Assembly (NCBI GenBank): GCA_015232575.1
Contig: JADFZL010000004.1
Coordinates: 14,381-78,380 of the forward strand
Source of the DNA: Candidatus Rifleibacteriota bacterium
GTDB taxonomy: Bacteria; Muiribacteriota; Ozemobacteria; Ozemobacterales; Ozemobacteraceae
DNA: 64,000 nucleotides
Direction of reading: 5' to 3'
A program made the translations under genes and the position numbers. Below are positions 9,549 to 56,822 of this stretch, one piece after another (the stretch's first letter is position 1; each line of letters begins with the position of its first letter). Under the pieces are notes generated by a model. The model saw nothing but the letters and a program-made list of their open reading frames with translations, had not been told where the DNA came from and did not search any database.

Positions 9549-12527
9549 ATGTTTACTGATAAGCTTAGTCTTGAAAATCTTTCATTTCCTTCTGAAAAAA
9601 TTGCTATTACATGGCATTCTGGAGAAGGTGTCTGGAAAGACATTACTTATGGTGAATTCCGAACTCAGGTTGACAAGATGTCTGCTTTGCTTCGTGAAAA
9701 AGGCATTGGTCGGAAAAATTCAGTAATATTCCTTGGTGAGAACCATCCTTTCTGGCTCCAGGCTTTTTTTGCACATATTAAGAATTCATCTGTCGTTATT
9801 CCGGTAGATGGTTCTGTTACCGACGAGAGACTGCTTGATATAGTAGCTCTTTCCGGAGCATCTGGAATTTTTGCAAGCCCGCTGCAACAGGCAAGACTCG
9901 AAAAAATCTGGAACAGGTTTCCGGAAAAATTTGCTATTTTCAGAAATGAACTGGAACCATGGCTTGAAAAAAATGGAAAAGCCGTTGAGCCGGCTAGTGT
10001 GCCCGATGGAACAGCGGCGATATTTTTCACTTCAGGTACAACCGGGCAGCCCAAGGGAATAGTTCTTTCAGAAAAAGCTCTGGCTGCATCAATTGTAATA
10101 GGTACAGGACTTGGAAATATTGGTTCTTCTGATATCATGTTGACTTTACTTCCGTTTACTCACGTATACGGAATGGTCGATGCCGGATTTGTTCCGCTTG
10201 CAACTGGTGCAAGAAACATTCTGATGTCTTCCTTTAATCCGATGGAAGTTTTTCAGGTGATTTCAAAATTCAGAGTGAATTTCTTAAATGTGGTTCCAAG
10301 ACTTGCTGAAGTTATTCTTGCCGTTCTCACGCAGAGTGACAGTAAATTAGCAGGCTTGAACCTTTTTGTTGGCGGTGCATCATGTAAGCCAGATGTAATA
10401 CGAATGCTTCGAAAGCGTGGCATAAAGACTTCCTTCGGGTTTGGAATGACCGAAACCGCGGGTGGAATACTCGCCAATGAAGGAGAACCGGCTGAATCGG
10501 TCGGAATTCCTCCGGAGGACATCGAAATAAAAATCGACAACCAGAGCGATGGATTTGGTGAAATACTTATTAAATCACCAACAATGCTGACCTGCGTTCT
10601 TAACAACGAGGAAGAAACAAAAAAAATCTTTCATAATGGCTTTTTGAAAACCGGTGATCTTGGAATGATTGATTCAAACGGTTATGTTCACATTAAAGGA
10701 CGCCTGAAAGACGTAATTGTATGCGGCGGCGGAATGAATGTATATCCCGATGAGCTTGAGGCAAGGCTTGAATTGTCACCATTCGTTGAGGAATATTCCG
10801 TGACGGTTATGAAAGAGGACGGTTATGAATTTCCAATGCTTGTTGTTAAGCCGCGTGCAGCCTTTTTTAAAGATAGACCAACTCTGGACATTCAGGAATA
10901 TATTTCAGAGCAGGTAAAAAAACAGATTTCAAGATGGGCTGAATGGGAAAGATTCAGAAAGATTATGATTTCTGAGAAGCCTCTTCCAAGGTCTTTCAAC
11001 CAGAAAGTCCAGAGACACGTTCTTTCAGCAATGTTTTCCCGAGACAATGAAGAAATTGCACTTTCTGAAAATAAACAAAAAACGGCTTCAGATAACAGTT
11101 CTTTAAATAAATATTTTGAAAAAACTGTGAAATTCCTTGCGCATTTCCTTTCCAAAAAACATGAGCAAGCGTTTTTGAAAGCATCCCTTAACGATTTCCC
11201 CCAACTGGACTCTCTCGGAAAAATAGCTTTGCTTGCCGCTTTTGAAAACCGCTTCAAGATCAGAATACCTGGAATTCAGATTGAAAATGAAAGCAGTATT
11301 GAAAATACAGCGTTTCTTCTTTCTAAATATCTCGAAAACAATGCTGGAACTTCAGCCGTTGAAACAGATAAAGATGTAAACTTTCTTCCGCCGGAAAGAG
11401 ATAATTCAAAAGATGCCGTTTCGGCAAGGCTTGATTTCCTGAAAGACTTATCTGGTGATGAACTTGAAGAATTTTCGCCGCCGGTTGCTGCATCGCATCT
11501 GACCGGAAACATCGAAGGTTTTATCGGTTATGCACAGATCCCAACGGGAATTGCCGGACCATTGCTTGTAAATGGAGACCATGCGAAAGGTGAATTTTAC
11601 CTTCCTCTTTCCACGACAGAAGGCGCACTTGTTTCATCAGTTTCAAGAGGCGCAAAATTGCTTACTTCAGCCGGAGGAGTAAACGTAAAAATCATTTCTG
11701 ATGGAGTCATACGGTCTCCTATTTTTATGTTCAACTCGTTGGGTGATATGATCAAATTTAAAGAATGGTTCGAAAATTCTTTAGATAAAATTAAATCTGT
11801 GGCAGCAAGTACTACACGCCACGGACGGCTGAAGGAAGTAGAAATGCTTCCGCTTGGGACTTCGCTTGCAATTAGAATGGTGTATTACAGCGGAGATGCT
11901 TCGGGACAGAACATGTGTACTATTGCGACTCAGAAAGTACTTGACTATGTTGCAGCAGAATATAAAGGTCCAATGACCGACTTATTTCTTGAATGCAATA
12001 TTTCAGGTGACAAAAAGATTAATGCGTTTAATTTTATCCGGGGTCGCGGAAAGAAAGTCATTGCTGAGGCGCGTATTCCGGGAATACATATCGAAGATAT
12101 ACTTCACACAACACCTGAAAGAATGGTTAAAAACTGGGAAATGTCCGTTCTTGGAAGTTTCCAGGCACACTCTTTCGGAATTCAGGCACACTATTCGAAC
12201 CTGTTGACCGCATTGTATCTGGCAACCGGCCAGGATGCAGCCTGCTCAGCAGAGTCGTCAGCCGGAATAACGCATCTTTCATTGTCAGGAAGCGATCTTA
12301 AAGCAAGTGTTACTGTCCCCGGAATAATGGTAGCCACGGTTGGAGGAGGGACACGCCTTGCCACTCAGCAGGCATGTCTGAGAATACTCGGGTGCACCGG
12401 AGAAGGAAAAGCAGGAAAGCTTGCAGAAATTACAGCAGCAGGAATACTTGCAGCCGAACTTTCACTGATTGGTGCAATGGCAGCCGGCGATTTCTCCAGT
12501 GCACATGCCAAATACGGAAGAAAGTAA
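9549..12527 (+). CDS. Tri-domain fusion. An AMP-dependent synthetase (fatty-acyl-AMP-ligase-like) is followed by an acyl carrier protein domain and then a class-I HMG-CoA-reductase-like catalytic domain.
   Basis: Adenylation motifs FTSGTTGQPKG, GFGMTETAG, TGDLG and GRLKDVIVCGG. Phosphopantetheine attachment motif LDSLGKIALLAAF. HMGR motifs IGYAQIPTGIAGPLLVNGD, LPLSTTEGALVSS, GDASGQNM, ATVGGGTRLATQQACLRILG and ...AAELSLIGAMAAGDFSSAH, which carries the catalytic His. RBS GGAG lies upstream. Confidence 0.85.
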   Translation: MFTDKLSLENLSFPSEKIAITWHSGEGVWKDITYGEFRTQVDKMSALLREKGIGRKNSVIFLGENHPFWLQAFFAHIKNSSVVIPVDGSVTDERLLDIVALSGASGIFASPLQQARLEKIWNRFPEKFAIFRNELEPWLEKNGKAVEPASVPDGTAAIFFTSGTTGQPKGIVLSEKALAASIVIGTGLGNIGSSDIMLTLLPFTHVYGMVDAGFVPLATGARNILMSSFNPMEVFQVISKFRVNFLNVVPRLAEVILAVLTQSDSKLAGLNLFVGGASCKPDVIRMLRKRGIKTSFGFGMTETAGGILANEGEPAESVGIPPEDIEIKIDNQSDGFGEILIKSPTMLTCVLNNEEETKKIFHNGFLKTGDLGMIDSNGYVHIKGRLKDVIVCGGGMNVYPDELEARLELSPFVEEYSVTVMKEDGYEFPMLVVKPRAAFFKDRPTLDIQEYISEQVKKQISRWAEWERFRKIMISEKPLPRSFNQKVQRHVLSAMFSRDNEEIALSENKQKTASDNSSLNKYFEKTVKFLAHFLSKKHEQAFLKASLNDFPQLDSLGKIALLAAFENRFKIRIPGIQIENESSIENTAFLLSKYLENNAGTSAVETDKDVNFLPPERDNSKDAVSARLDFLKDLSGDELEEFSPPVAASHLTGNIEGFIGYAQIPTGIAGPLLVNGDHAKGEFYLPLSTTEGALVSSVSRGAKLLTSAGGVNVKIISDGVIRSPIFMFNSLGDMIKFKEWFENSLDKIKSVAASTTRHGRLKEVEMLPLGTSLAIRMVYYSGDASGQNMCTIATQKVLDYVAAEYKGPMTDLFLECNISGDKKINAFNFIRGRGKKVIAEARIPGIHIEDILHTTPERMVKNWEMSVLGSFQAHSFGIQAHYSNLLTALYLATGQDAACSAESSAGITHLSLSGSDLKASVTVPGIMVATVGGGTRLATQQACLRILGCTGEGKAGKLAEITAAGILAAELSLIGAMAAGDFSSAHAKYGRK

Positions 12528-12530
12528 AGT

Positions 12531-13289
12531 ATGAAAGTCATATTCGTTACCTCAAGTGTTACTTATGTGAAAGATAATTATCTTTCACTTTTCAACAAAC
12601 TCTTCACCGGACTTGAAAAACTGCCTGATGTACATCCTGTTGCACTCGGAGTCCTTCAGGTGCCAAAACCGTACCTTTTGAAAAATATTTTCGGCCTAAT
12701 TGCACTTGGCGCCCCTGACGTAGGTCTTACGCTTATGCGCAATCTGGCTTCTTCATGTGTGAATGATCCGAGAATACAGCTGGCATCTGCGCGCGGAATG
12801 AAAGTCCTCAAACCGGGAAATGTAAATTCTCCAGATTCGTTGAAGGAAATCGCAGCGCTTTCTCCTGATCTGATTGTAAATATCCGAACCAGAAACATAT
12901 ATCGCGATGAAATTCTGAAACTCCCTAAAATAGCATGTATAAACATTCACCACGGACTTCTTCCTGATCACCGCGGTACCATGTGCGATTTGTGGGCCTG
13001 GGTTGAGGGACGCCCTGTCGGATTTACAATTCACAAAATGAATGCAAAGATCGATGACGGCGAGATTCTTTACCGAAAGGAAATTCCGGTGAAGAACGTG
13101 AAATCATATATCGAAATACCATTTATCTCGAGTCAGTACGAGGCGGATGGTCTTTTAATGTGCATCGAAAAGTTTTTACAAAATAGCAACTGGAAGGGTT
13201 TTCCAAACTCAAAATCAGGAGTTCCGCATACCAGAAATCCGTCTTTTTCAAAAATTAGTGAATGGCGAAAGATGGGACTGAAACTGTAA
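12531..13289 (+). CDS. Formyltransferase-family protein (Fmt/PurN/ArnA N-terminal fold)
   Basis: INIHHGLLPDHRG (catalytic N..H) and KIDDGEIL (catalytic D). The start lies 4 bp after the stop of the preceding gene. Confidence 0.8.
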   Translation: MKVIFVTSSVTYVKDNYLSLFNKLFTGLEKLPDVHPVALGVLQVPKPYLLKNIFGLIALGAPDVGLTLMRNLASSCVNDPRIQLASARGMKVLKPGNVNSPDSLKEIAALSPDLIVNIRTRNIYRDEILKLPKIACINIHHGLLPDHRGTMCDLWAWVEGRPVGFTIHKMNAKIDDGEILYRKEIPVKNVKSYIEIPFISSQYEADGLLMCIEKFLQNSNWKGFPNSKSGVPHTRNPSFSKISEWRKMGLKL

Positions 13290-13304
13290 TTATAGGAGAA
13301 AAAA

Positions 13305-14156
13305 ATGACTGTACCTAAAGTAAAAACCAGCGATCTTAAGCTTGGAAATATACGTGTGGAATATCTTGATATTGGCGAAGGCAAACCTGTTTTTTTCCTT
13401 CACGGTAATCCCGGAATGAAGGAAGAATGGGAAGCTCTTTCTGTTGCTTTGGCTCAGGAAGGTTTCAGAAGCGTAGTTCCAGATAGAATCGGGCATGGAA
13501 AATCAGATCCGATCCTTTTCAGCACTGATGATCCGGAGAGAACAACAGATATTTACCATGAATTGATAAAGAAAACCTGTTCCGGACAGGCATATCTCGT
13601 TGGATACTCTTTTGGCTGCTTTCTGGCACTCCGAATTGCAGAAAAATATCCCAAGGCAGTTTCAGGGCTGGGGCTCATAGCCCCATTCATTTTTCCAAGA
13701 GATCTGCAGGAAAAACCATCTTCCATGCCCAAACTGGCAAAAATTCCAGTAATTGGTGATCTTTTAGGATTGCTTGTACCATTTCTGGCAAAAGGAAAAA
13801 TGAAAGAACACATTGAACGCGTCTTCCAGCCACAAAAGCCTGGAGAAGATATAATGAGGAAGTCGCTTGAGCAATATTCAACATTCAAGTCCGTCATCGC
13901 CGCGATGAACGATAAAAACGAAATGATTGCTGCAAACCAGGAATTGATTGCACAGCTTCCATCAATAAAAAAGCGTGTAATAGTTATCGGTGGCAGCAAT
14001 GATGCAGTATGTGGGTCAGATGAACACATAAACCGAATTGCAGAATCAATAAGCGGTGCTGAAAAACGAATCATTCAAAACGGCGGACATGGAATAATCT
14101 TTTCTCATGTACGAGAAATATCTGAAATGATTGCATCTCACATAAAAAAGGACTGA
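13305..14156 (+). CDS. Alpha/beta-hydrolase fold protein
   Basis: HGNPG oxyanion-region motif. Nucleophile elbow GYSFG. Length of about 280 aa. It is the last gene of the operon. Confidence 0.8.
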   Translation: MTVPKVKTSDLKLGNIRVEYLDIGEGKPVFFLHGNPGMKEEWEALSVALAQEGFRSVVPDRIGHGKSDPILFSTDDPERTTDIYHELIKKTCSGQAYLVGYSFGCFLALRIAEKYPKAVSGLGLIAPFIFPRDLQEKPSSMPKLAKIPVIGDLLGLLVPFLAKGKMKEHIERVFQPQKPGEDIMRKSLEQYSTFKSVIAAMNDKNEMIAANQELIAQLPSIKKRVIVIGGSNDAVCGSDEHINRIAESISGAEKRIIQNGGHGIIFSHVREISEMIASHIKKD

Positions 14157-17543: not shown

Positions 17544-19433
17544 ATGAAAAAACGACTTGTGTATTTTTTCCAGATCATGCTTGCATTAAACGTGCTTGCA
17601 ACGACTGACCTGGAGGCTGCGGAACGTTCAGAAGTACCGGAGAAATACAAGTGGAACACTGCCGATCTTTTTCCGACCGAAGAAGCATGGAGCAACAAGG
17701 CAAAAGACATTGCAGCGCGTATTCCCAAATTGGCCGATTTTCAGGGGAAACTTGGCACCGACGCTGCCGGATTCTTTGCAGCTCTGGATACAATAATGGC
17801 TCTGGATAATGAACTTTCCCGGCTGATGACCTATGCCAGCATGAGAAGCGATGAAGATACGCGCGCCGGAAAACCCCGTGAAATGGAACAGACCGCAAAA
17901 GATCTGGCCGTAAAGTTTACTTCGACTACTTCCTTCATGCGCCCTGAAATTATCGCTCTTGGTGAAGCTAAAGTCATGGGGTTTGTAAATGAGGAAAAGA
18001 AACTTCTACCTTATAAACCCTGGCTTGAAGACATTCTGCGCTATATTCCACATACACTTTCTGTTGCAGAAGAAAAAATTGCTGCCCAGGCTCTCATGAT
18101 GGCTGATGCTTCAGAGAATGCATACAGCATTTTTACGAATGCCGATCTGCCTTACCCGGAAGTTACACTTTCTGACGGCACCAAAGTTCGCATTGATGCT
18201 TCGGCTTATGGAAATTACCGTGCTTCTCCAAATCGCGAAGACAGAATAAAAGTGTTCCAGACGTTCTGGACAGAGTACAAGAAGTTTGAACGAACCCTTG
18301 GCACAACACTTTATGGCCAGATCAAAGCGCATATTTTCAACAAAGAAATCCGCAAATATAACAGTTGTCTCGAAGCTGCACTTTTTGATTCGAATGTTTC
18401 GCAGACTGTTTACAAACAGTTAATCGCCGATGTTCATGCAAATCTTCCAACTCTGCACAGATATCTTAAACTTCGCAAGAAAATGATGGGCCTGGAAAAG
18501 CTTGGATACGAAGATCTTTATGCACCTATCGTGAAGGAAGTGGATTTGAAATACACTCCTGAAGAATCAATAAAACTGGTCATGGAAGCATGTGCTCCTC
18601 TTGGAAAGGATTACCTCACCGACCTGCAGATGAGTTTTGATAAGCGCTGGGTAGATTTTCTTCCAACAACTGGAAAAAAATCAGGCGCCTACAGTACTGG
18701 AGTTTATGGTGTACATCCTTACCAGCTTCAGAACTTCACAGGACAATATGACGAAGTTTCCACCGTGGCACACGAGTCAGGTCACTCTATGCATACCTAT
18801 CTTTCTGATAAGAACCAGCCCTACGTGACCCATGACTACAAAATCTTCGTGGCTGAAGTAGCATCGACACTGAATGAAAATTTCCTTCTGGATTACATGC
18901 TTAAAAATACCAAGAACAATGATGTCAAGCTCTTCCTGCTTGGCTCTTACCTTGACAGACTTCGCACCACACTTTTCAGACAGACTTTGTTTGCTGAATT
19001 TGAAATGTTGATCCATGAAATCGCTGAAAAGGGCGACCCTTTGACCGGTGAAAAACTTACAGAACTCTATCTGAGTCTGCTTAAGAAATACTACGGCCAT
19101 GAAGCCGGCGAATGCAATATTGACGATCTTTATGGAATTGAGTGGGCGTTTATTCCTCACTTCTATTACAATTTCTATGTCTACCAATATGCCACCAGCA
19201 TTACAGCTTCATCACTCATCGCCGACAAAATTCGCGCCGAAGCTCCGGCAGTAACTGCTCGTGATTCTTATCTGAAGATGCTTTCTTCCGGTTGTTCTAA
19301 ATATCCGATTGATCTTCTGAAAGACGCTGGCGTCGATATGACAACTTCAGCTCCGTTCAACGCTGCAATGAAGCAAATGAACACTATCATGGACGAAATG
19401 GAAAAAATTCTGGCCGAAAACACCAAAAAGTAA
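17544..19433 (+). CDS. pepF: Oligoendopeptidase F (M3B family), with a signal peptide and therefore probably secreted
   Basis: HESGHSMH zinc motif. Length of about 630 aa. RBS AAGGAG upstream. N-terminal signal peptide. Confidence 0.85.
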   Translation: MKKRLVYFFQIMLALNVLATTDLEAAERSEVPEKYKWNTADLFPTEEAWSNKAKDIAARIPKLADFQGKLGTDAAGFFAALDTIMALDNELSRLMTYASMRSDEDTRAGKPREMEQTAKDLAVKFTSTTSFMRPEIIALGEAKVMGFVNEEKKLLPYKPWLEDILRYIPHTLSVAEEKIAAQALMMADASENAYSIFTNADLPYPEVTLSDGTKVRIDASAYGNYRASPNREDRIKVFQTFWTEYKKFERTLGTTLYGQIKAHIFNKEIRKYNSCLEAALFDSNVSQTVYKQLIADVHANLPTLHRYLKLRKKMMGLEKLGYEDLYAPIVKEVDLKYTPEESIKLVMEACAPLGKDYLTDLQMSFDKRWVDFLPTTGKKSGAYSTGVYGVHPYQLQNFTGQYDEVSTVAHESGHSMHTYLSDKNQPYVTHDYKIFVAEVASTLNENFLLDYMLKNTKNNDVKLFLLGSYLDRLRTTLFRQTLFAEFEMLIHEIAEKGDPLTGEKLTELYLSLLKKYYGHEAGECNIDDLYGIEWAFIPHFYYNFYVYQYATSITASSLIADKIRAEAPAVTARDSYLKMLSSGCSKYPIDLLKDAGVDMTTSAPFNAAMKQMNTIMDEMEKILAENTKK

Positions 19434-19466: not shown

Positions 19467-19506
19467 TCAGATGGACCACCGCAATTGGTGGTCCATCTGA
19501 TTTTAT
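19467..19506 (+). terminator. Rho-independent terminator downstream of pepF
   Basis: Stem cagatggaccacc / ggtggtccatctg, followed by attttat. Confidence 0.6.
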
Positions 19507-19706
19507 GAAGCCTTACTGTTAAATCCTTAAAAGGCGCTTGTCATGTTTTACGTTTTGTGATAACAAGGTAAAAACAGATCGGATTTATAGATGAAAAGAG
19601 AGTTTTCTTCATGGTATAAGAAATATTAAAATACTTGATCAACTTTCTAAAATTTTTGATGTATGCAAATGGCAGGGAAAAATTTTATTTTGATGTGGAG
19701 GTTTAT

Positions 19707-20240
19707 ATGTATAAATCTTTTCTTACTATTTTTCTGGTGGCAGTGGTAGTTTTGATTTCCACGCCACTCTTTTCAACTCAGATTCTTTACATTGCTCCTG
19801 ACGGATTGACCATGAAATTGTCTCTCCAGAGCGATCCGGCGAAACAAGATCTGGTCCTGCTCACAGGAAATGTTGAGGGTAACCTTGGAAATATCAGTAG
19901 TATTACCATGCAGTTTTTCGGCTCTCCTGGAATTACGGTGGAACCAGCTTCAGCTTCTATTCCGCGAATTTCAAAAGGTGAAGCCGTTAAATTCGAAATC
20001 AGGGTAAAGGGCTTGGCTGAGCTTTCTGGAAAGGCAACTTCGTGGGTAAAGATGCGTGCAGATTATGTTCCAGATTATAAAACTTTAATTGAGCAGGTTA
20101 AAAACGATGAACAGGAATATCCTGACCAATATGCACGTCAGGATCTTCTTCAGGGCATTATGGAAGGGCAGGAAAAAACTGAAACAATTTCTCAGGTAAT
20201 TGGGTACCTGCTTTCGACCAACGAATCAAAAGATCGCTAA
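19707..20240 (+). CDS. Small secreted protein, 177 aa. Cassette member A1, paralog of 22641-23174.
   Basis: Start chosen at the ATG with GGAGG 6 nt upstream, inside the ORF-track call. Signal peptide. About 85% identical to A2. Confidence 0.65.
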   Translation: MYKSFLTIFLVAVVVLISTPLFSTQILYIAPDGLTMKLSLQSDPAKQDLVLLTGNVEGNLGNISSITMQFFGSPGITVEPASASIPRISKGEAVKFEIRVKGLAELSGKATSWVKMRADYVPDYKTLIEQVKNDEQEYPDQYARQDLLQGIMEGQEKTETISQVIGYLLSTNESKDR

Positions 20241-20252
20241 AGGAGCTGAATC

Positions 20253-21773
20253 ATGAAATTAAGAAGTCGCATTTTAAAGCTCATTTTTGTCTTTTCATAC
20301 TGCCTCCTTTGCTGTCCTTTGCTTTTTGCCGGCGAAGTTAAGTTTGAAATTGTAAAACTTCTAAAAGTTCTTGGTTACAAATACGTTAAAGGCGAGGAAA
20401 ACTGGCAGGATAAAATAGAAATAGGGGTTGGCGATTCGGAAAGATATTTGACCGAAAAATTTCAATACTCAAGTCGTGATGAAGTTGAAAAGCTCTTTAG
20501 AGAATGGTCGGGTGGTGAACTTACCAAAGAACAGAAAAAGACTCTTGAAGTGATCGATTGCGTAAAAGGCGAAATGATAAAAAGTCTTATGGCTCTGGGG
20601 AAAAAAAACCTGGGTAAAGATGATTGCGACATTGTCGTGAAAATATTTGACACATCTCTGGTTGAAAACGAAAGGGGAAAAGATAAAGTATTAAAAGAAT
20701 TCTGGCCGTGTTTCTCCAGAAACACCAGCAGTATTACCATTCCTACTGCTTATTTTGCTACTAAGAAGTATCCTGGAACAGTGCTTGTACATGAACTTGC
20801 TCACTCGGTAGATAAAGCTGTACATGAAGATAATGCTTACGGGCCTGATGGTTCTCACAGTGTTAATGAGATTACCAAGCCGATAGCAGCATTCAAAGAG
20901 GGCTGGGCTATATATAACGCATATGATGCTTTTCCCGGCGATTATGGAATTCCCTTCAATCTCAAGGAAGATGGAGTGAAAATCGAATCTGCTGATAAAG
21001 GAAAATACGATAACTACGCTGGAGAAAAAGTCACTGGAAAAGAAATTCTCTGTGTCGAGGGTGTCAATGCCAAGATTATGCAGCAAATTGCATCTGAATA
21101 CGGCCGGGAAAAACTTGAAAAAGCTTTTCTCGAATGCAATTCAAAAGGGACCACCATCAAGAATCTTTTTTCAAGTTTTGTAAAACTTAATCCCGATTCA
21201 ACAAAGAAAGTATTCGAGATACTGGATAAAGAAACATTAGGAATTCTTAAAGACAGTGAAATAACAGAAATTTTAGGAGATGGAAAAACAGTAAAGAGCC
21301 TTTTATCTGCCCGCAAACAATCTCCACTAAGCAGGGAAGCATCTGATAGAATTCAGTCCTTCATAGAAGATTATCAGAAAACTTTGAAAAATCTCATGGC
21401 ACAACCCCAGCCTCTTTCTGAAGAAGATGCAAAGATGCTTCAAAAGTATAAAAGATTAATAGCAGGGGAGATTGATCGTTTTAAGTCCAGTATTGCCGAA
21501 ATACAAAAGATTACCCGTAACAAAAAAGCTATGGCTGAATTTTCCCCGGCACGGCAAGCTGAATTAAAGGCGGATGCTAACTCGTTTAAGGAAATTTCTA
21601 AAAAGCAAAACGAATTTATGGAAACTTTTGAAAAATTTATGAAAGTCAGCGACAATAATAACCAGATGATTAAAAATAATGGTGTTGATGACTCCAATAT
21701 TAACACCACCCAACCAGAAGCACAGGAGCAGCCTGCTGAAGGCACTTCCGAAAAGGGGCTTTTTGGAAATTAG
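20253..21773 (+). CDS. Secreted HExxH...E metallopeptidase-like protein. Cassette member B1, paralog of 23187-24698.
   Basis: Signal peptide. VLVHELAHSVD followed about 30 aa later by FKEGWA, the pattern of a gluzincin-type zinc site. The C-terminal 28 aa are near-identical to B2. Confidence 0.65.
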   Translation: MKLRSRILKLIFVFSYCLLCCPLLFAGEVKFEIVKLLKVLGYKYVKGEENWQDKIEIGVGDSERYLTEKFQYSSRDEVEKLFREWSGGELTKEQKKTLEVIDCVKGEMIKSLMALGKKNLGKDDCDIVVKIFDTSLVENERGKDKVLKEFWPCFSRNTSSITIPTAYFATKKYPGTVLVHELAHSVDKAVHEDNAYGPDGSHSVNEITKPIAAFKEGWAIYNAYDAFPGDYGIPFNLKEDGVKIESADKGKYDNYAGEKVTGKEILCVEGVNAKIMQQIASEYGREKLEKAFLECNSKGTTIKNLFSSFVKLNPDSTKKVFEILDKETLGILKDSEITEILGDGKTVKSLLSARKQSPLSREASDRIQSFIEDYQKTLKNLMAQPQPLSEEDAKMLQKYKRLIAGEIDRFKSSIAEIQKITRNKKAMAEFSPARQAELKADANSFKEISKKQNEFMETFEKFMKVSDNNNQMIKNNGVDDSNINTTQPEAQEQPAEGTSEKGLFGN

Positions 21774-21791
21774 GACATTAGGAGAAATTTT

Positions 21792-22550
21792 ATGTTTAGA
21801 AAATTGTACAAGAGTCTAAACGGTTTGATGTTTGTGTTTGTGCTTCTCATGTCGTCGTTTCTTGGTGCTGCTGACAGAACAAACACATATCTTTTACCGA
21901 ATGAAGATGAAGGTTATGCCGGATACTGCCAAATTCATGCAGATGGTTCTTTTGCAATCTATCCGAATTCAGGGGGTGAAATAAAGGGAACAGGTGGAAG
22001 CAGTGCACTAAACCAGGCAATAAAGGATAATGGACTGCCGCCAAAAAAAGGTGGGTCTGTTGATCCACGTTTTTTTACGCTACCTCCGGGCAATTACGAC
22101 CTCGGAAGGGGAAAGTTAGAATACAAGGAAAATGGAGATATAACTATAAAGTTAAAGAGTGGAATCTCCGTTACCAGTTCAGGAGGTGGATTGAGTTTGG
22201 CTGCGCTGGCTCTGAATAATTATTTGACCTTTCCAGACTTGACAGAAGAAATAATGGGAAGTGCTGACAAGGGTTTGTTGCCTGCGTCTCAAAAATTCCC
22301 ACTTTCTGGAACGACTTCTCCTGATTCAACAGGCGGCGAAAGAAATGAGCTCAAAAATCCCAGCAACCCGAAAGTTGAAGTAACGGTTACTTCAATTGCT
22401 GATGATCAGAAAGTTTCCCATAAAGAAACTACAGTTCAAACAAATCAGCCTGTGGTTGTTCCACCTCAACTTGGAGCGGAAACTGGCACCTCGGCGCAAG
22501 AAAAGAAAGACGACAAGCTCAGCAAGCTGAGACCGCCAAGTTCCCAGTAA
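21792..22550 (+). CDS. Hypothetical secreted Gly/Ser-rich protein
   Basis: RBS GGAG upstream. Signal peptide LMFVFVLLMSSFLGAA. Confidence 0.55.
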   Translation: MFRKLYKSLNGLMFVFVLLMSSFLGAADRTNTYLLPNEDEGYAGYCQIHADGSFAIYPNSGGEIKGTGGSSALNQAIKDNGLPPKKGGSVDPRFFTLPPGNYDLGRGKLEYKENGDITIKLKSGISVTSSGGGLSLAALALNNYLTFPDLTEEIMGSADKGLLPASQKFPLSGTTSPDSTGGERNELKNPSNPKVEVTVTSIADDQKVSHKETTVQTNQPVVVPPQLGAETGTSAQEKKDDKLSKLRPPSSQ

Positions 22551-22640
22551 TTGGTGACAGTTAGGTCAAGTCTATGAGGTTTTTTCGTTAGGACTGATTG
22601 AGTTGTTACTGAAAAACTTTATTTCAATTTGGAGGATTGC

Positions 22641-23174
22641 ATGAATAAATCTATTCTTTTTATTTCTCTGTTTGCAGTGGTTGTTTTGATTGCTGTTCCT
22701 GTCTATTCAAGTCAGATTCTTTACGTCGCTCCCGATGGGCTGAATATGAAATTGTCTCTGCAAAGTGACCCGGGAAAACAAGATCTCGTTCTCCTTACCG
22801 GAAAAGTGGAAGGCAATCTTGGAAATATCAGCAATATTTCAATGCAATTTTTCGCTTCTCCGGGAATTACGGTAGAACCAGCTTCAGCGACTATTTTCAG
22901 TATTTCAAAAGGCGAAGTGGTCAAGTTTGAAATCAGGGTTAAGGGTCTCGCTGAGCTTGCAGGAAAGGCAACTTCCTGGGTAAAGATGCGTGCCAATTAC
23001 CTTCCGGATTATAAAGCTTTAATTGAACAGGTTAAAAACGATGAACAGGAATTTCCTGACCAGTATGCACGTCAGGATCTTCTTCAGGGCATTATGGAAG
23101 GGCAGGAAAAAACTGAAACAATTTCTCAGGTAATTGGGTACCTGCTTTCGACCAACGAATCAAAAAACCGGTAA
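22641..23174 (+). CDS. Small secreted protein, 177 aa. Cassette member A2.
   Basis: GGAGG RBS upstream of the ATG at 22641. Paralog of A1. Confidence 0.65.
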   Translation: MNKSILFISLFAVVVLIAVPVYSSQILYVAPDGLNMKLSLQSDPGKQDLVLLTGKVEGNLGNISNISMQFFASPGITVEPASATIFSISKGEVVKFEIRVKGLAELAGKATSWVKMRANYLPDYKALIEQVKNDEQEFPDQYARQDLLQGIMEGQEKTETISQVIGYLLSTNESKNR

Positions 23175-23186
23175 AGGAGCAGAATC

Positions 23187-24698
23187 ATGAAATTCGGAAA
23201 TCATATTTTCAAGCTCATTTTTATTTTTTCATACTGCTTACTTTGCAGCCAATCGCTTTTTGCCGGTGAAGTGAAGTTCGAAATTGTAAGACTTTTGAAG
23301 AAAGTTGATTCAAAATACCTGAAGACGCCAGGAGAAGAGATTTCACAGGGGCGCTCGGAAAGATATCTGAGCGAAACTTTTCAATGCTCCAGCAAGGATG
23401 AGGTTGAGAAACTCCTGAAAGAATGGTCAGGAGGAGAACTTGATAATGCCCAGAAAAAGATTGTTGAGATGGTGGGATATGGTAAAGATAAATTGACTAC
23501 AGATCTTATGACTTTGGGGAAAAAAAACAAGGGAAAAGATGACCGTGACATCATTGTGAAAATTTATGATTCATCTCTGGTTGAAAATGAATTAGGAAAA
23601 AAGTTTTTTATGAAAGAATTCTGGCCAAGTTCTTCTGGAGATACAATAAAGTTTCCTATTGCCTATGTCAGCAGCGTTGGCGGTAACCCCAGCAAAATTC
23701 TAGTGCATGAACTTTCCCACGCAATAGATAATAACCGGCGTGAAAGTGGCTCTTACGGTCCAGATGGTGACCATTCTCCGAGCGAGATTACCATGCCACG
23801 CTCAGCATTCGTAGAGGGCTGGGCTGAATATAATACGCTCTATGCTTTCCCCGGAAAGGATGGTGATGCATCCAAAGGCTTTGAAACAGTTCTCAATGCT
23901 GGAGTAAGAATTGAATCAAGTAAAGGAAAATATGATAAATATTCCGCGGAAAAAGTGACTGGAGAAGAAATTCTCAGTACTGAAGGTGTCAATGCTTTGA
24001 TTCTTCACAAAATTTCAGCAGAATTTGGTCGGAAAAAACTGGAAAAGGCTTTTTTAGACTCCAACTCAAAGAAAACGACTATCGGTGACTTTCTTTCAAG
24101 TTTTGTAAAACTCTATCCAGATTCGTTAAAAAAAGTTTTCAACATCCTGAATAAAGAAACATTTGGTATTCTCAGCGACAGTAAAATTACAGAAATTCTA
24201 GGAGATGGAAAAACTGTTGAAACTTTTTTAAAGAATAGGAAACAGCCCGCTTTCAGCAGAAATGCATCTGAAAAGATCCTGGTTTCAATCAGCGAAGACA
24301 GGAATACTATCAAAACCATTATGGAGAAACCTCAGCCTATCTCTGATTCTGATAAAGACACACTTCAAAAAGCTAAAGAGCAATTGGCAAAAAAAATGGC
24401 AGATTATGAAACCTGCGTTTCTGGAATAATTGAGTTAATGCAAAACAAAGAAGCCCTTAAAGAATATTCTCCTTCACGGGATGCTGAGCTTCGGAGTTAT
24501 GAGGTATCCGCCAGCGGGAATATCAAAAAACAAAAGAAATTTATGGATTCGGTTGACAATTTTTTGTTAGAGAACGAGAAAAATAACCTGCCAATTTCAA
24601 AAATAGATGTTGATGATTCCAATATTAACACCACACAACCGGAAGGTCAGGAACAGCCTGTCGAAGGAACTTCCGAAAAAGGGCTCTTTGGAAATTAG
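23187..24698 (+). CDS. Secreted HExxH...E metallopeptidase-like protein. Cassette member B2.
   Basis: ILVHELSHAID ... VEGWA. The same spacing to the preceding gene as in cassette 1. Confidence 0.65.
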   Translation: MKFGNHIFKLIFIFSYCLLCSQSLFAGEVKFEIVRLLKKVDSKYLKTPGEEISQGRSERYLSETFQCSSKDEVEKLLKEWSGGELDNAQKKIVEMVGYGKDKLTTDLMTLGKKNKGKDDRDIIVKIYDSSLVENELGKKFFMKEFWPSSSGDTIKFPIAYVSSVGGNPSKILVHELSHAIDNNRRESGSYGPDGDHSPSEITMPRSAFVEGWAEYNTLYAFPGKDGDASKGFETVLNAGVRIESSKGKYDKYSAEKVTGEEILSTEGVNALILHKISAEFGRKKLEKAFLDSNSKKTTIGDFLSSFVKLYPDSLKKVFNILNKETFGILSDSKITEILGDGKTVETFLKNRKQPAFSRNASEKILVSISEDRNTIKTIMEKPQPISDSDKDTLQKAKEQLAKKMADYETCVSGIIELMQNKEALKEYSPSRDAELRSYEVSASGNIKKQKKFMDSVDNFLLENEKNNLPISKIDVDDSNINTTQPEGQEQPVEGTSEKGLFGN

Positions 24699-24705
24699 TT
24701 TTTCA

Positions 24706-27246
24706 TCATTCGGCCCCTGTAAGGCTTACACTGGAATTTTTATCATCGATAGCCAGAATATAGGCTTTTTCGGCAGCGGGGCTGCATGGGTTGAAATATG
24801 GGTTGTACTGAATAGTTCCTCCGTGTTTAAAGTTTTCCATGGTTGAAGGTTTAGAGGTGGAATGATCTGGAGTGAGTTCGAATACTGCCATTCCGCCTCT
24901 GATATCCAGTTTGTTGGTGTTGGATGAGCCTGTTCCTGTTGTTGCCAGCACTCTGCCGCCCACCCCGGGAGATTCAGTTGTACCTTTGCTCAAGGCAACG
25001 AGATATGCGTTGATTTCTGTGTTGGGTGGTACATAAATGTTGCCGTCAAGAGCGATAATTGAGAATAAATGCCTGGAAACTCCATCAACTACATCACTAC
25101 TGGTTATGCCACCTTTAAACATAATGCTTTTCCGCTCAAGAATAAGAATTCCAGATTTATTCAACTTGATGGGTTTGTCGATTACAATTTCTGAATCTGT
25201 TCCCTGTCGAAGAATCAAATAGATGCCTGGACGGTTAAACTCATATCCTACAAGGCTTCCTCCGCTGAAAACCTTTGAAAAAACTCGGGAACCGAGGATT
25301 TCCATCTGTTGGGCATGGTCATTGATTCCAGAAAGATCAATTATTTGGGTAACACGAGGATACAAGCCCTTTTGAACTGTAGAATTGAAAGGAAATGAAC
25401 CGAAGTTGAGTTTTCGAAGGTCTCCGAAAAAGATTGTTTCTTCGTTATCAACAGAGGGAAGTATCGAACCGGAGCGGCTCTTAGAAAGCTGAATGTTCGT
25501 TACGGGAAGGTGGCAGGGCGGATTTTCTGAATTTAAAGAGTTCAAACCAGGAATTGCCTGCGATTTTCCTGGAAGCATCCCAATGCCACCAGTGCGACTT
25601 TTTGAGTTGTTCAAGTCGGGTAATATTCCATAACCCATCAGGTCAAAAATCATATTCAGGGCAACGCCCACCATAGGTGCCGATCCATGAACAGGAGCCC
25701 ACCATCGGGGTCTGATGCTTCGCAGTTTTTCAAATCCAGGTTTCGGCTCTCCAGTAGAGGTCTGGAAAATATCAGCATTTTTTGCAGCCCCCGTCAAAGC
25801 AGGAATTGTTTTGACAGGAGCGTCAGGGTCGTAGGTTGAAGAATCTTGACCGACCAGTATGCCCTTCTTGTTAGCGTCGTTAGTTAACATATAATACTGA
25901 AGAAATTCAGCATAAGCCGGTCCTGCTACCAGTGTACGGGAAGGTCTGAACCTGATTCCAAAAGGCAAAACCCATGAAGAGGACATGTCGTCTGCGGTGA
26001 TTGCTGTTCCGTCTGGTTTTACCCAAAGATTGTGTGTCCGCACTCCGGAATTGTTCGTATCAGAAAGGGTCGCATCAAATGTGAAAAAACCCTGCAATTT
26101 AGTGTGAACTTGATAAGGACCGCCTATTGGAGTCGGAGTTTTCAGAAGATCCGGGTCGGAAATCGGGTAGGGAAAGTTTCCTACGATTCCACCGCCGACC
26201 TGCGTCGGAAAGCTCAAATAGGTATGACCACCTATGCCACTGTTTCCAGTCATTCCGGGGTCGGGAAGAAAACCCGATGGAATGCGAACATGAACCGGAC
26301 CGTTGAGAGCGGTCGGATTTCTTCCGGAGGCTGTGGTAGGGCACATTCCAAGAAAAACCCATCCACGGGTTTGAAGATCTTTCGTTGCATCCTGCAATGG
26401 GAGACCTCCGGAAAGATTTACTGTGTCAGTTCCGTTTATGCAGACGAGTGGACGAAAGCTTGGTGCGCTGTAACTTTCTGAATTAAAGACGGTACGATCA
26501 TCCCATGAACCATCGAATTGATTGCGAACAGTATTATAAGACTGCGGACCCGGATTAAAAATTGAGAAAAGCGTAAACCGGCACCATGGCCCTGAAATCA
26601 TATTTACTATTTTGAACTGCCGACTGATGTTTGCCTGTCTGGTTAAGCCCCGAAAACTGACCTTACATGATAGCGTAAGCATTCCACGTCTTTCTACCGC
26701 GTCGAATCCGGCCGCAAGGTTATCAGGGTCAGACGGATCTTTGAGCCTTTCCATATTGGTAAAGGAAAGCCCCATCTCTTCAACTCTTGGGATGAATTTT
26801 CCGTATGAATAGCTTTTTATAACCTTTTGATAATCACCCGCCACCCTGCTCATAAGGTTGTTTGGATCACGTGGAGTGCCATTGATATCTGTCTTACCGC
26901 TTATAAGATTGAGCGTTTTCGCGTCTACTGGCTTGAAAAGGCTGAGTGCTTGAGCCTGAAGTGTTTCTCTTACAGACGGATCCTGTTGATTGATGACTTC
27001 TGCCAGGAAATATCCGCCGTTCATTGCCAGGGTTGACGTGACTTCGCTGATAGTACCGTGGTGAAGAAGAAGATTCTGAGAACGCATGATATTATTGTAA
27101 GCTAGAATGATTCCTATCAGGAACATCAGTACAAGGAAAACAACTCCTAATACCATTCCATTGCGCCGGTTCGATTTATAATTATTTCGGAGAGAATTTT
27201 TATGCACTGCAGATTCCTTGTACTTTTTGAATATTTTCAGACTCAA
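24706..27246 (-). CDS. Large hypothetical protein, 846 aa, with a single N-terminal membrane anchor and an extracytoplasmic body
   Basis: Transmembrane segment VLGVVFLVLMFLIGIILAY near the N-terminus. It is transcribed divergently from the pseudopilin genes. Confidence 0.55.
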   Translation of the reverse strand: MSLKIFKKYKESAVHKNSLRNNYKSNRRNGMVLGVVFLVLMFLIGIILAYNNIMRSQNLLLHHGTISEVTSTLAMNGGYFLAEVINQQDPSVRETLQAQALSLFKPVDAKTLNLISGKTDINGTPRDPNNLMSRVAGDYQKVIKSYSYGKFIPRVEEMGLSFTNMERLKDPSDPDNLAAGFDAVERRGMLTLSCKVSFRGLTRQANISRQFKIVNMISGPWCRFTLFSIFNPGPQSYNTVRNQFDGSWDDRTVFNSESYSAPSFRPLVCINGTDTVNLSGGLPLQDATKDLQTRGWVFLGMCPTTASGRNPTALNGPVHVRIPSGFLPDPGMTGNSGIGGHTYLSFPTQVGGGIVGNFPYPISDPDLLKTPTPIGGPYQVHTKLQGFFTFDATLSDTNNSGVRTHNLWVKPDGTAITADDMSSSWVLPFGIRFRPSRTLVAGPAYAEFLQYYMLTNDANKKGILVGQDSSTYDPDAPVKTIPALTGAAKNADIFQTSTGEPKPGFEKLRSIRPRWWAPVHGSAPMVGVALNMIFDLMGYGILPDLNNSKSRTGGIGMLPGKSQAIPGLNSLNSENPPCHLPVTNIQLSKSRSGSILPSVDNEETIFFGDLRKLNFGSFPFNSTVQKGLYPRVTQIIDLSGINDHAQQMEILGSRVFSKVFSGGSLVGYEFNRPGIYLILRQGTDSEIVIDKPIKLNKSGILILERKSIMFKGGITSSDVVDGVSRHLFSIIALDGNIYVPPNTEINAYLVALSKGTTESPGVGGRVLATTGTGSSNTNKLDIRGGMAVFELTPDHSTSKPSTMENFKHGGTIQYNPYFNPCSPAAEKAYILAIDDKNSSVSLTGAE

Positions 27247-27874
27247 ATTTCACAAGCTGTTTTCACCAGAAAATTATATCACGACCAAAGAGAAAAATTA
27301 ACTAAAATACCATTTTTTTTCAACGGTACGCATAATTATTAAGATTTTGAAAATGGAAAAAAACGATATTGGTTTGATGCGGGTTTTCAAGTCAGATTTT
27401 CACAGCCTTAATAACGATGCGTATCATTGTTTTGTTTTGATCATTTTTTTCCCTTTTGATAACTTGAATTTCGCACATTCTGTCGGTCGAAATGGCAAAA
27501 TCGGAATTCTGGAGAATATGTTAACGCATATGATCCGGCCCTCTCCTGCGGCGAAGGTGTGAAAAAATACCCTTTTTTTGGAAAAAGTGACCCTCGTAAG
27601 CCTCATCAGCAGAGAGTCGATTTCTTGAAAATCAATTATTTCACGGCTTCGTCGCGGATACGTGGGGAGCGAATAAAAGGTAATATGCCCCCCTTTATTA
27701 AGATTTGCTTAACTTAGATTTTGTTTTAAATTAGCAAAAATTTATGATAGAATGATCTAACTTCAGGCTTTCTGAAGTTTCTGAAATTGCCAGGAAAAAT
27801 CTATTTTATCTGCTGTGTCTTGACTGAGAGTTAAAATATGCAGAAGACCTGGTGGATAATTTTGAAAGGTTTTC

Positions 27875-28408
27875 GTGAATAAATTTCCTCGTTTTGGGTT
27901 CTCCCTTGTAGAGATTGTCGTGGCATTGTTTGTCATGGGGTTGGCTGTTGCTCCGATTATGGGACTGATGAGTCAGACAAATATTGATTCCACAGCTTCA
28001 ATGTATGAAGTTCTTGCTGGAAACTATGCGACCGAACTTGGCGAGCAGCTTCTTGATCTTTCTCTGAACCGTTCTCAACCTCGTTTTAAACAGATTGAAG
28101 CGGATACCCACCAATCCATTAAAGACCTCCTTGAAGGACTGAACGAGAGTCTTTCAGATACTTCTGTAACTAATCCAAGGGCTGTTTTTCTCCCAACCAG
28201 CAAAATTGGAATAATGGTTTCTCCACTGGATCCGGCTTTTACAAAGCGGAAAATAACTGTTGAACCCGTTACCGGACTGACGTATTCGGTCATGTATGGT
28301 GAGTGCTATCGTGTTCTTATTCAGCTTGCATGGCGTCTTCAGGGAGAATCGACTGCATTGCCGGCAAAGCACTCCCACGAAGCAATGATCCTTATCAGAA
28401 AGGATTAA
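27875..28408 (+). CDS. Protein with a prepilin-type N-terminal cleavage/methylation domain (type IV pilin or T2SS pseudopilin-like)
   Basis: Short leader MNKFPRFG, then FSLVEIVVALFVMGL with Glu at position +5. Confidence 0.7.
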   Translation: MNKFPRFGFSLVEIVVALFVMGLAVAPIMGLMSQTNIDSTASMYEVLAGNYATELGEQLLDLSLNRSQPRFKQIEADTHQSIKDLLEGLNESLSDTSVTNPRAVFLPTSKIGIMVSPLDPAFTKRKITVEPVTGLTYSVMYGECYRVLIQLAWRLQGESTALPAKHSHEAMILIRKD

Positions 28409-28421
28409 ATAAGAGCTTTCT

Positions 28422-29096
28422 ATGCATCAGTCTCTTCGAGCTGTTCATTCAGATATTAATGTCAGGAATTCTTCTGGTTTTACAATGATTGAACTCGTTG
28501 TCGCGACGGTCATTGGAGTTATCATAATGGGCAGCGTCTACATGTTGATGACCACAGGAATGCGCCAGACTACAAAAGGACGTGACCTTCTTGACGCCAT
28601 TCGTGAAGCGCATCAATTGTTTTCTTTTATCCGCAGAGATATGCTTGCTTCTGTTGTTTTGCAGGCACCTTCCTTGACAGATCCCTTGTATTCGGTAACC
28701 CTGGATGTAAATGATACTGACATGCCTCCTATGACCGGAACCAACTATGTGAGCACATTGGTTTTTGGCTTTTCGAATGCTACTGCCACATACCAGTTAA
28801 AGACTGATTCAAAAGGGTACAATTACATTCAGAGAACTCTTGTTTCTGGGAGTGGTGGTCCCTCTGCGGAAAACCACCAGTTTGCTGTTCGCCGGATGAA
28901 GTCATTTCGAGCTTTGGTGGTCCGAAAAAAACACAATACCGCTCAAGGGAAATCACCTTTTAATACGCGGCATCTTTTTTTTCAGATTATCCTCCAATCA
29001 GATTCCACCCAGAAAAATCTGTCGCAGAAAGAAGTTGTACTTACTTCGTTTTTCACTCCTTCGAATGTCGTCATTTCTGACTGGAATGCCTGGTAG
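28422..29096 (+). CDS. Second protein with a prepilin-type N-terminal domain
   Basis: FTMIELVVATVIGVIIMGSVYML. The true start is uncertain. Confidence 0.6.
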   Translation: MHQSLRAVHSDINVRNSSGFTMIELVVATVIGVIIMGSVYMLMTTGMRQTTKGRDLLDAIREAHQLFSFIRRDMLASVVLQAPSLTDPLYSVTLDVNDTDMPPMTGTNYVSTLVFGFSNATATYQLKTDSKGYNYIQRTLVSGSGGPSAENHQFAVRRMKSFRALVVRKKHNTAQGKSPFNTRHLFFQIILQSDSTQKNLSQKEVVLTSFFTPSNVVISDWNAW

Positions 29097-47635: not shown

Positions 47636-47639
47636 TCTT

Positions 47640-48293
47640 ATGGAGACAGAAAAAATGGAAAAGAAAAACTTAATATTTGTCTTTCTGGTTCCGGTGTTAA
47701 TGATGCTGAACGGATGTGGTGGTGGTGTTGCCGGCGAAGGCAGCAATGACTATCCGCAAACCAGCGGCACGACAATTATCAGGGCGAATTCTTTCAATGA
47801 TAAGGGCTGGGACCTGATTTCAAAAGCTCAGTATCAAAGTGCAATAACCTCTTTTAATCAGGTGCTGGCAGATAATCCGACAGCCCAGGAAGCCTGTGAG
47901 GCAAACTCAGGGCTTGGATGGGCACGTGGTCGAATAGGCACTATGAAGGACGGTATGGAGTGGTTTGCAAAAGCAGTTGATGGTTCCAATGATGCAAAAG
48001 TTGGACTGGCTGCTGCTTATGTTCAGTTGGGTTCAAAAAGTGATCTCGAAAAAGCTGTTGATTTGCTCTATACAAAGCTAGGTGGAGAAAATCCGCACTT
48101 TCATTATACCACCTCAAGACCTACCGGTGTAAGCGATGCCGAATGTCATGCTCTTCTAGCTTTTGCGTTTGCTGGAATCGGAAAAAACGATGAAGCGACA
48201 ATTCAGCTTGATTATGCAAAGGAATTGAATCCAAATTGGCAGAATACAACAATTGACCAGATAAACAATGTCGTAGAATTCCTTAATAAATAA
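47640..48293 (+). CDS. TPR-like lipoprotein. Partner of giant protein 1 and paralog of 56148-56822.
   Basis: Lipobox MMLNGC. Starts 5 bp after the giant-gene stop. Confidence 0.65.
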   Translation: METEKMEKKNLIFVFLVPVLMMLNGCGGGVAGEGSNDYPQTSGTTIIRANSFNDKGWDLISKAQYQSAITSFNQVLADNPTAQEACEANSGLGWARGRIGTMKDGMEWFAKAVDGSNDAKVGLAAAYVQLGSKSDLEKAVDLLYTKLGGENPHFHYTTSRPTGVSDAECHALLAFAFAGIGKNDEATIQLDYAKELNPNWQNTTIDQINNVVEFLNK

Positions 48294-48451: not shown

Positions 48452-48538
48452 CCTTCATGCTTTAGCTCTTTTTTGTCGAAATATGAACGAATAGAAATAT
48501 TTTTTCGCTCGTTTTTCAAGAAAAACAGGAGTAAAGAC
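48452..48538 (+). promoter_or_regulatory. Conserved leader and 5' UTR of giant gene 2
   Basis: Paralogous to 42160-42247. Confidence 0.5.
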
Positions 48539-56143: not shown

Positions 56144-56147
56144 TTTT

Positions 56148-56822
56148 ATGGAGACAGACAAAATGCAGAGAAAACAGAAAAAAGTGCAGAAAAAAGGGCT
56201 ATTTGTTCTCATTTTTATTCCGGTAATGATGATGCTGAGCGGGTGCGGTGGAGGTGTTGCCGGCGAAGGTGGAAACCAGTATCCACAGACCAGCGGCACA
56301 ACAATTGTCAGGGCAAATTCTTTCAATGATGAAGGCTGGGACCTCATTTCAAAAGGTCAGTATCAGAGTGCAATAGCGCTTTTTAATCAGGTTCTTGCAG
56401 ATAATCCGACAGCTCAGGAAGCCTGCGAGGCGAATTCGGGTCTCGGGTGGGCACGCGGTCGGATAGGAAGTCTGAAAGATGGCATGGAATGGTTTGCAAA
56501 AGCTGTTGATGGCTCAAACGATGCAAAAGTTGGTATGGCTGCTGCTTATATTCAGATGGGTTCGAAAAGCGATCTGGAAAACGCCGTTGATTTGCTCTAC
56601 ACGAAACTCGGAGGAGAAAATCCGCACTTTCATTATACCACTTCGAGAGCTACCGGAGTAAGCGATGCAGAATGTCATGCTCTTCTTGCTTTTGCGTTTG
56701 CCGGAATCGGAAGGAGCGATGATGCAACCATTCAGCTTGATTATGCAAAGGAATTGAATCCAAACTGGCAGTCAACGACGATTGAACAAATTAACAATGT
56801 CGTCGATTTCCTGAATAAATGA
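56148..56822 (+). CDS. TPR-like lipoprotein, partner of giant protein 2
   Basis: Lipobox MMLSGC. 5-bp gap to the upstream gene. About 85% identical to 47640-48293. Confidence 0.65.
   Translation: METDKMQRKQKKVQKKGLFVLIFIPVMMMLSGCGGGVAGEGGNQYPQTSGTTIVRANSFNDEGWDLISKGQYQSAIALFNQVLADNPTAQEACEANSGLGWARGRIGSLKDGMEWFAKAVDGSNDAKVGMAAAYIQMGSKSDLENAVDLLYTKLGGENPHFHYTTSRATGVSDAECHALLAFAFAGIGRSDDATIQLDYAKELNPNWQSTTIEQINNVVDFLNK

Follow-up and report, generated by a model that had tools for sequence, protein, structure and literature searches.

A tandemly duplicated gene pair encoding a predicted secreted gluzincin-type metallopeptidase and a putative partner protein in Candidatus Riflebacteria

AprI/Inh is a small periplasmic β-barrel inhibitor that is encoded together with a secreted zinc metalloprotease and shields the cell from prematurely active enzyme. 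The serralysins are metzincins (M10) that use type I export and have no signal peptide. Among the gluzincins of clan MA(E), the spacing from the second His of the HExxH motif to the Glu ligand is 18 in M1 and 19 in M4, and thermolysin-type enzymes prefer a bulky hydrophobic residue at P1′. In Tannerella forsythia, the potempins are small proteins that inhibit the KLIKK peptidases and whose genes lie directly upstream of those of their targets (PMC9890683, PMC4404884). Here, we analyzed a stretch of 64,000 nucleotides (nt) from a Candidatus Rifleibacteriota bacterium (assembly GCA_015232575.1, contig JADFZL010000004.1, positions 14,381 to 78,380 of the forward strand), referred to below as the window and numbered from its first letter. 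It contains two copies of a two-gene unit, A-B, which encodes a small protein A and a predicted secreted metallopeptidase B.

The unit resembles the potempin/KLIKK operons in that the gene for a small, presumably secreted protein lies directly upstream of, and co-oriented with, that of a predicted secreted peptidase, and in that several such pairs occur per genome. As in the KLIKK peptidases, the two B proteins share a nearly identical C-terminal end and differ in their catalytic parts. However, the potempins, which are co-transcribed with their peptidase, comprise 98-132 residues and are lipoproteins of the outer membrane that adopt OB or eight-stranded barrel folds, whereas A1 and A2 are longer (177 residues) and lack a lipobox Cys. 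The KLIKK peptidases represent disparate catalytic classes and have a type IX secretion system (T9SS) C-terminal domain that ends in KLIKK; B1 and B2, unlike them, belong as paralogues to a single family and end in a helical bundle and a short disordered tail. We detected no sequence homology between potempins or KLIKK peptidases and A or B. The likeness to the serralysin AprA is also limited, as B is a predicted gluzincin with an N-terminal signal peptide.

The proteins A1, B1, A2 and B2 are identical to GenBank entries HQM10_07335, HQM10_07340, HQM10_07350 and HQM10_07355, respectively, from a Candidatus Riflebacteria metagenome-assembled genome (MAG), where they lie on a contig of 412 kb. 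On the plus strand, the order is pepF, a hairpin, A1 (19707..20240), B1 (20253..21773), a gene here called C (21792..22550), A2 (22641..23174) and B2 (23187..24698). The start of A is an ATG after GGAGG, giving 177 residues in agreement with the GenBank calls, and B1 and B2 have 506 and 503 residues, close to the roughly 500 given in the original prediction, which also had A at 177. Its two cassettes at 19707-21773 and 22641-24698, with the same gene order, were confirmed, as was the 12-bp spacing of A and B: the two spacers, AGGAGCTGAATC and AGGAGCAGAATC, both contain AGGAG and are identical at 11 of 12 positions. The cassettes had been called tandem, which is correct for the duplication but not in the sense of direct adjacency, because the unrelated open reading frame (ORF) C intervenes. 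C encodes 252 residues with a signal-peptide-like N terminus (HQM10_07345), is present once, and has no homologue in the related loci described below. In a global alignment of both stretches, homology begins at ~19664/22598, some 45 nt ahead of A, and ends with the stop codons of B; none was found outside these limits. A1 and A2 share 85% amino-acid identity; B1 and B2 are collinear throughout with 57% amino-acid identity and 67% nucleotide identity over the aligned codons. The predicted substantial divergence of the gene bodies does not hold for A at the protein level. Synonymous divergence (dS) in 30-codon windows, with Jukes-Cantor correction, ranges mostly from ~0.5 to saturation in the bodies of the two genes, indicating that the duplication is old. 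B1 and B2 group as sisters in a neighbour-joining tree and are joined next by HQM10_04260 from the same MAG, on a long branch apart from the other homologues. The arrangement A1-B1-C-A2-B2 represents an old, lineage-specific tandem duplication of the two-gene unit A-B.

Protein B and its family

B1 starts with a signal peptide (residues ~1-27). The catalytic domain (~28-355) follows, then a helical bundle (361-475), and the protein closes with a disordered tail whose last residues are GLFGN. The HELxH and downstream EGWA motifs, from which a gluzincin-like zinc site had been predicted, are present in both copies. In B1, HELAH (20790..20804) provides H180, E181 and H184, the presumed two zinc ligands and catalytic base, and EGWA (20898..20909) provides E216, the presumed third zinc ligand; the corresponding motifs of B2 are HELSH (23706-23720) and EGWA (23814-23825). 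We aligned 54 homologues, which share only ~20-38% identity with B1, the paralogue B2 aside. H180, E181, H184, H202, E216 and E269 are invariant in this alignment, and W151, P152, Y196, G197, D199, E206, A213, G217 and A219 are nearly so, with the consensus HExxHxxD...YGxDGxHYxNExTxPRAAFxEGWAxF.

Neither Pfam nor NCBIfam gave an above-threshold match for B1 or B2, and no peptidase family of Pfam exceeded its threshold in any of the 64 B-family members scanned. Below threshold, Peptidase_M91 (NleD-like effectors; 13.9-16 bits, cut-off 25) and Aspzincin_M35 (14.1 bits, cut-off 30) showed a weak and local likeness around the HExxH helix. The other weak matches, DUF6055, SprT-like, M61, M90 and BepA/M48 (from the PDB), are likewise all zincins, and those with reported coordinates all map to the HExxH region. 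The Asp of the aspzincin DxxYG motif corresponds to D193 of B1, which we rejected as the third ligand because Ser takes its place in B2 and the family as a whole does not conserve the residue. Parvalbumin/EF-hand matches at residues 286-365 (E>=0.017) were treated as chance or helix-pair similarity.

We modelled B with AlphaFold2. Whereas the two paralogues alone gave a predicted local distance difference test (pLDDT) of 47, the 54-sequence alignment raised it to 90.2, with a predicted template modelling score (pTM) of 0.85. In this model, HExxH lies on helix 174-186 and E216 on a ‘glutamate helix’ (210-226), and the thermolysin-like two-lobed fold matches the catalytic domains of thermolysin, LasB, M1 and M36 enzymes, in accordance with the predicted metalloprotease fold around the HExxH motif. 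The model also matches helical bundles (CorA, syntaxin Habc and spectrin) over ~110-135 residues, which we attribute to the modelled C-terminal helices 361-475. A Foldseek search with B against the PDB returned nothing significant, so the relationship is remote.

Comparison with the established gluzincin families (M4 thermolysin/pseudolysin, M1/LTA4H and M36 fungalysin) sets B apart. Its second His and Glu are separated by 31-32 residues, unlike in M1 and M4. B also lacks the M4 ExxxD motif and an FTP/PepSY propeptide, GxMEN is absent from B1 and B2, and neither the Pfam scan nor the model revealed a recognisable propeptide domain. The Peptidase_M4/M4_C and FTP/PepSY models were unmatched in B1, B2 and the 64 family members, and the Peptidase_M1 model in B1 and B2. 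On the other hand, B has an additional invariant YGxDGxH loop and E269, and the family differs in its C-terminal modules, where an NPF/LFG tail comes after a helical bundle or DUF4124. From the model and the conserved residues, we conclude that B is probably a gluzincin-fold (clan MA(E)) metallopeptidase of a family not yet described, with presumed zinc binding, third ligand and activity.

A word-indexed homology search with B1, A1 or the 54-sequence profile recovered only the query itself and its paralogue. An exhaustive HMMER scan of representative protein clusters at 50% identity with a profile of B1 and B2, however, returned 151 representative clusters, 83 of them at E<=1e-10, covering residues ~60-370 of B1; the orphan status suggested by the word-indexed search was thus wrong. 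In 115 of the 151 representatives, EGxA occurs no more than 70 residues after HExxH, the commonest distance being 31-32 residues. All named members encountered are labelled ‘hypothetical’ or, in one case, DUF4124. In four representatives (P0015, P0022, P0023 and P0025), DUF4124 stands between the catalytic domain and the NPF tail, replacing the helical bundle of B1 and B2, and the NCBI name of one such member is only ‘DUF4124 domain-containing protein’. About half of the 151 representatives (P0005-P0153) end in V.V......NPF[GSA][DE] or GL[FL]G[NQM], in which a bulky hydrophobic residue is placed between small ones; this is GLFGN in B1 (21753-21770) and B2 (24678-24695). This extreme C-terminal motif could serve in sorting, act as a pseudo-substrate or mark a site of autoprocessing.

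Scans of species-representative genomes and metagenomes with a 7-sequence alignment produced 60 loci. These scans were keyed on a single peptide pattern around EGWA, so the numbers of family members and the fractions of loci with a linked A are minimum estimates or biased in other ways. The loci in named genomes come almost entirely from Riflebacteria, Ozemobacteraceae or Rifleibacterium, with a few from Avigastranaerophilus, Methylomirabilis and unclassified bins. Several genomes have more than one B locus, and the source MAG holds at least two more B paralogues, HQM10_04260 and HQM10_10605. A metagenome scan aimed at the window’s own clade found only relatives with ~30% identity, and we found nothing relevant in the literature on Riflebacteria with metalloprotease or peptidase. 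One clade of solo B genes (L001, L003, L007, L018 and L031) shows conserved synteny, with dnaX upstream and, downstream, a gene for a protein of 540-560 residues whose N-terminal segment is hydrophobic; a small conserved ORF lies on the opposite strand.

Protein A as a candidate partner of B

The alignment of 13 sequences of the A family, to which A1 and A2 belong, shows a signal-peptide-like N terminus, a segment of ~95 residues with alternating hydrophobicity and a helical tail. Read by eye, the ~95-residue segment is probably a β-sandwich or barrel. Y28, P31, G61, F70, W113, Y120, P122, D123, P139 and L147 are invariant. Searches of Pfam, NCBIfam and the PDB found no relative of A, and no homology of A to AprI/Inh was detected. 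The idea that A is a split-off propeptide of B was rejected at the sequence level (hhalign probability of 2% for A against B). In four A homologues (L011, L016, L023 and L033), the signal peptides contain a lipobox-like LAAC or LTAC as judged by eye, and A may be a lipoprotein in Ozemobacteraceae.

The original prediction had also proposed A as a cognate partner of B, which is supported by conserved adjacency in other Riflebacteria. Profile searches found A homologues in 18 of 59 related loci (11/39 in the first set), always adjoining B and on the same strand except in two loci with a convergent A. The arrangements are A-B-B′ (in Ozemobacteraceae), A-B, B-A and B-B-A, and four loci (L016, L023, L033 and L034) show a 4-nt overlap between the stop codon of A and the start codon of B. 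Such conserved linkage together with translational coupling suggests that A is a stoichiometric partner of B. The A-B-B′ loci (L010, L011, L016, L023, L033 and L046-L049) double B in a different way from the whole-cassette duplication of the window, and the B and B′ of Ozemobacteraceae are ancient paralogues in separate clades of the tree.

We favour, with moderate confidence, a reading that combines an old duplication of A-B, a secreted gluzincin-type peptidase B, a partner protein A, and a mosaic of divergence that arose by constraint and a short gene conversion. B would be exported via the Sec pathway; the window contains a Kdo transferase gene, which implies a diderm cell with lipopolysaccharide, so that proteins with a Sec signal reach at least the periplasm. 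B would bind zinc through H180, H184 and E216, use E181 as the general base and act as an extracytoplasmic endopeptidase. A would be made in a fixed ratio with B through translational coupling, bind it and hold it inactive in the periplasm. By analogy with the logic of the AprI/Inh-serralysin and potempin-KLIKK pairs, a latency or inhibitor-type partner is the most likely role of A. Divergence at the active site and in the C-terminal bundle of B would reflect sub-functionalisation of specificity under continued purifying selection, as the pattern of differences between the two copies suggests. The mosaic itself would combine strong constraint on A, protein-level constraint on the N terminus of B and on the family-wide C-terminal hydrophobic-Gly motif, and the short conversion.

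Several observations weigh against this interpretation. No relative of A with a known function was detected in Pfam, NCBIfam or the PDB. The absence of a lipobox from A1 and A2, which have no Cys in or after the signal sequence, speaks against a cleft-specific inhibitor, and a cognate inhibitor of this kind also fits poorly with two nearly identical A proteins facing active-site regions of B that have diverged. About two-thirds of the B homologues lack a neighbouring A, which likewise argues against such an inhibitor and means that B does not generally require A. Besides E216, H202 is invariant and D199 and E206 nearly so, so that E216 is a candidate for the third ligand rather than an established one. 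The signal peptides of A and B were judged by eye, and the ratios of nonsynonymous to synonymous divergence (ω, after Nei-Gojobori), 0.14 for A and 0.27 for B, are approximate because synonymous sites in B are near saturation.

A could instead be a non-inhibitory subunit of B that recruits substrates as an adaptor, anchors or targets the enzyme, or helps it fold as a chaperone and is then released. We consider this unlikely, though deserving of serious attention. The adjacency and translational coupling fit any stoichiometric partner, and 85% identity between A1 and A2 against the diverged active sites of B (proportion of nonsynonymous differences, pN, 0.30-0.39) would fit binding to a conserved surface of B and not to its specificity cleft. 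Without a recognisable propeptide domain in B, a foldase acting in trans is also conceivable. However, the searches with A gave no domain or fold assignment, and the many B paralogues without A show that folding of B does not generally depend on A.

Uneven divergence between the two copies

The mosaic of conservation includes a perfect run of 102 nt at the 3′ end of A (20130-20231, equal to 23064-23165). It lies in a longer tract (20084..20232, copy 1; 23018..23166, copy 2) with 145 of 149 nt identical, as compared with 290/364 (80%) in the remainder of A and 67% across B. No window as clean as this tract occurred in 100,000 permutations of the mismatch positions (p<1e-5), and third-position mismatches number 5/58 in A codons 121-177 against 46/120 upstream (Fisher p=2e-5). 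The mosaic noted in the original prediction is therefore real when tested against uniform divergence. Its near-identity was said to run from the 3′ end of A into the 5′ end of B, which was overstated for B: the first 100 nt of B are identical at 82 positions and 27 of the first 38 residues match. At the other end of B, by comparison, the near-identity of the last ~28 codons proved correct, with two differences in the last 29 residues (B1 tail VDDSNINTTQPEAQEQPAEGTSEKGLFGN, 21684..21770) and 79/90 identical nucleotides. B1 and B2 differ most at the catalytic loops (residues ~150-240) and in the clade-specific helical bundle (~354-460).

Gene conversion had been suggested for the conserved ends in general. 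In A, dS falls to 0.20 and then 0.06 over codons 121-177 (0.06 for codons 136-165), whereas residues 142-175, covering the perfect run, are less conserved in the A family than any other segment (entropy 1.93 vs 1.56-1.81). Protein-level constraint cannot account for a tract in such a segment, and near-zero synonymous change combined with low conservation in the family points to gene conversion. The best explanation of these sequence patterns is that one tract of ~100-150 nt at the 3′ end of A was homogenised between the copies by conversion. This does not apply to the C terminus of B, where 9 of 11 nucleotide differences are at third positions, so that the segment is conserved as protein and conversion is not the cause; its extreme end belongs to the family-wide C-terminal motif.

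The 102-nt tract could also have been kept by selection at the nucleotide level, for example as an RNA element controlling translation of B or as an antisense promoter, which we regard as improbable. Its position is suggestive, since it ends 9 nt before the A stop and just upstream of the ribosome-binding site of B. In addition, a promoter-like TTAACC-16-TATAAT (10/12 matches) is found on the minus strand, antisense to A, at the upstream edge of the tract in both copies (20074-20101 and 23008-23035). Such sites are no more numerous than in shuffled sequence, however, and the segment is variable in other A homologues. An RNA structure behind the identical tract was rejected, as predicted folding was ordinary for both strands (z -0.5 and -1.35), and Rfam gave no match.

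The original prediction further raised diversifying selection on a secreted effector and a likeness to polymorphic secreted protease/partner families. In a polymorphic system of this type, the ends would be kept for recombination and the middles positively selected, which we hold to be very improbable. Divergence is indeed uneven and greatest at the active site and C-terminal bundle of B, and identical 102-nt direct repeats 2934 nt apart could mediate recombination or changes in copy number. However, the low ω values and the lack of any 30-codon window of A or B with nonsynonymous divergence (dN) above dS leave diversifying selection unsupported anywhere in the two genes; both are under purifying selection, which is stronger on A. 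Divergence is gradual, without a modular swap of variable domains, all catalytic residues are kept, and conversion is confined to one short tract, with the C terminus of B conserved as protein despite synonymous differences. Unlike in polymorphic toxin/effector cassettes, the small gene lies upstream and is more conserved than B, and there is no downstream immunity-like gene. No population data were found, and the metagenome scan gave no close relative. The mosaic is explained by ordinary purifying selection and one short conversion tract, and duplication and conversion here are ordinary genome evolution.

That B is a zincin-fold protein without catalytic or proteolytic function, serving for example in binding, with A a mere co-transcribed neighbour, is hardly credible: it would suit the want of an above-threshold family assignment, but HExxH, E216 and further polar residues are invariant in 54 sequences as divergent as those aligned here, which is typical of an active enzyme.

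Surroundings of the cassettes and biological meaning

Upstream of the cassettes on the plus strand, library scans identified pepF (17544-19433), which encodes an M3 oligoendopeptidase F. It is followed by a hairpin read from the sequence (19468..19505), with a 13-bp stem and a T-rich tail (ATTTTAT), which is likely a terminator between pepF and the cassette operon. Downstream, an 846-residue protein encoded on the minus strand (24706-29096) is convergent with B2, the two stop codons lying 7 nt apart; it has an N-terminal membrane anchor and no family match. Beyond this gene are two pseudopilin-like genes with prepilin-type N-methylation motifs, whose products may function in type II secretion or in an apparatus resembling a type IV pilus. 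Scanning the window for Rfam families and for tRNAs gave no matches, and PHROGs and PADLOC gave no meaningful ones.

A second tandem two-gene duplication, unrelated to A-B, occupies 42248-48293 and 48473-56822, indicating that such duplications are not unusual here. It comprises giant Ig-domain proteins of 1795 and 2556 residues, 79% identical over 1767 residues, each followed by a lipoprotein-like ORF of ~220 residues; the two ORFs are 86% identical, and both giants end in a Big_13 plus FlgD_ig/Por_Secre_tail-like C-terminal domain. At 9549-14156, a gene for a 992-residue fusion of an AMP-binding (adenylating) domain and an HMG-CoA reductase domain precedes genes for a formyltransferase-like protein and an alpha/beta hydrolase, and the three may form a small biosynthetic cluster.

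A-B is a new family within a known kind of system. As a more tentative possibility, A-B could be an undescribed two-component extracytoplasmic protease system, nearly restricted to Riflebacteria among named genomes, in which a gluzincin family new at the level of MEROPS is kept latent in trans by a β-rich A of novel fold. If so, the C-terminal motif (NPF-G-E/G-L-F-G-N) might add control as a pseudo-substrate or autoprocessing site. If B is active, its family would be a new gluzincin family that has no Pfam or NCBIfam model and that, among named genomes, is nearly confined to a poorly studied candidate phylum of anaerobic digesters, groundwater and sediments, often in several copies. The conserved A would add an example, possibly with a new fold, to the logic of a protease with its cognate regulator seen in AprA/AprI and KLIKK/potempin. 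Both annotation and the study of how Riflebacteria degrade proteins would benefit from these results.

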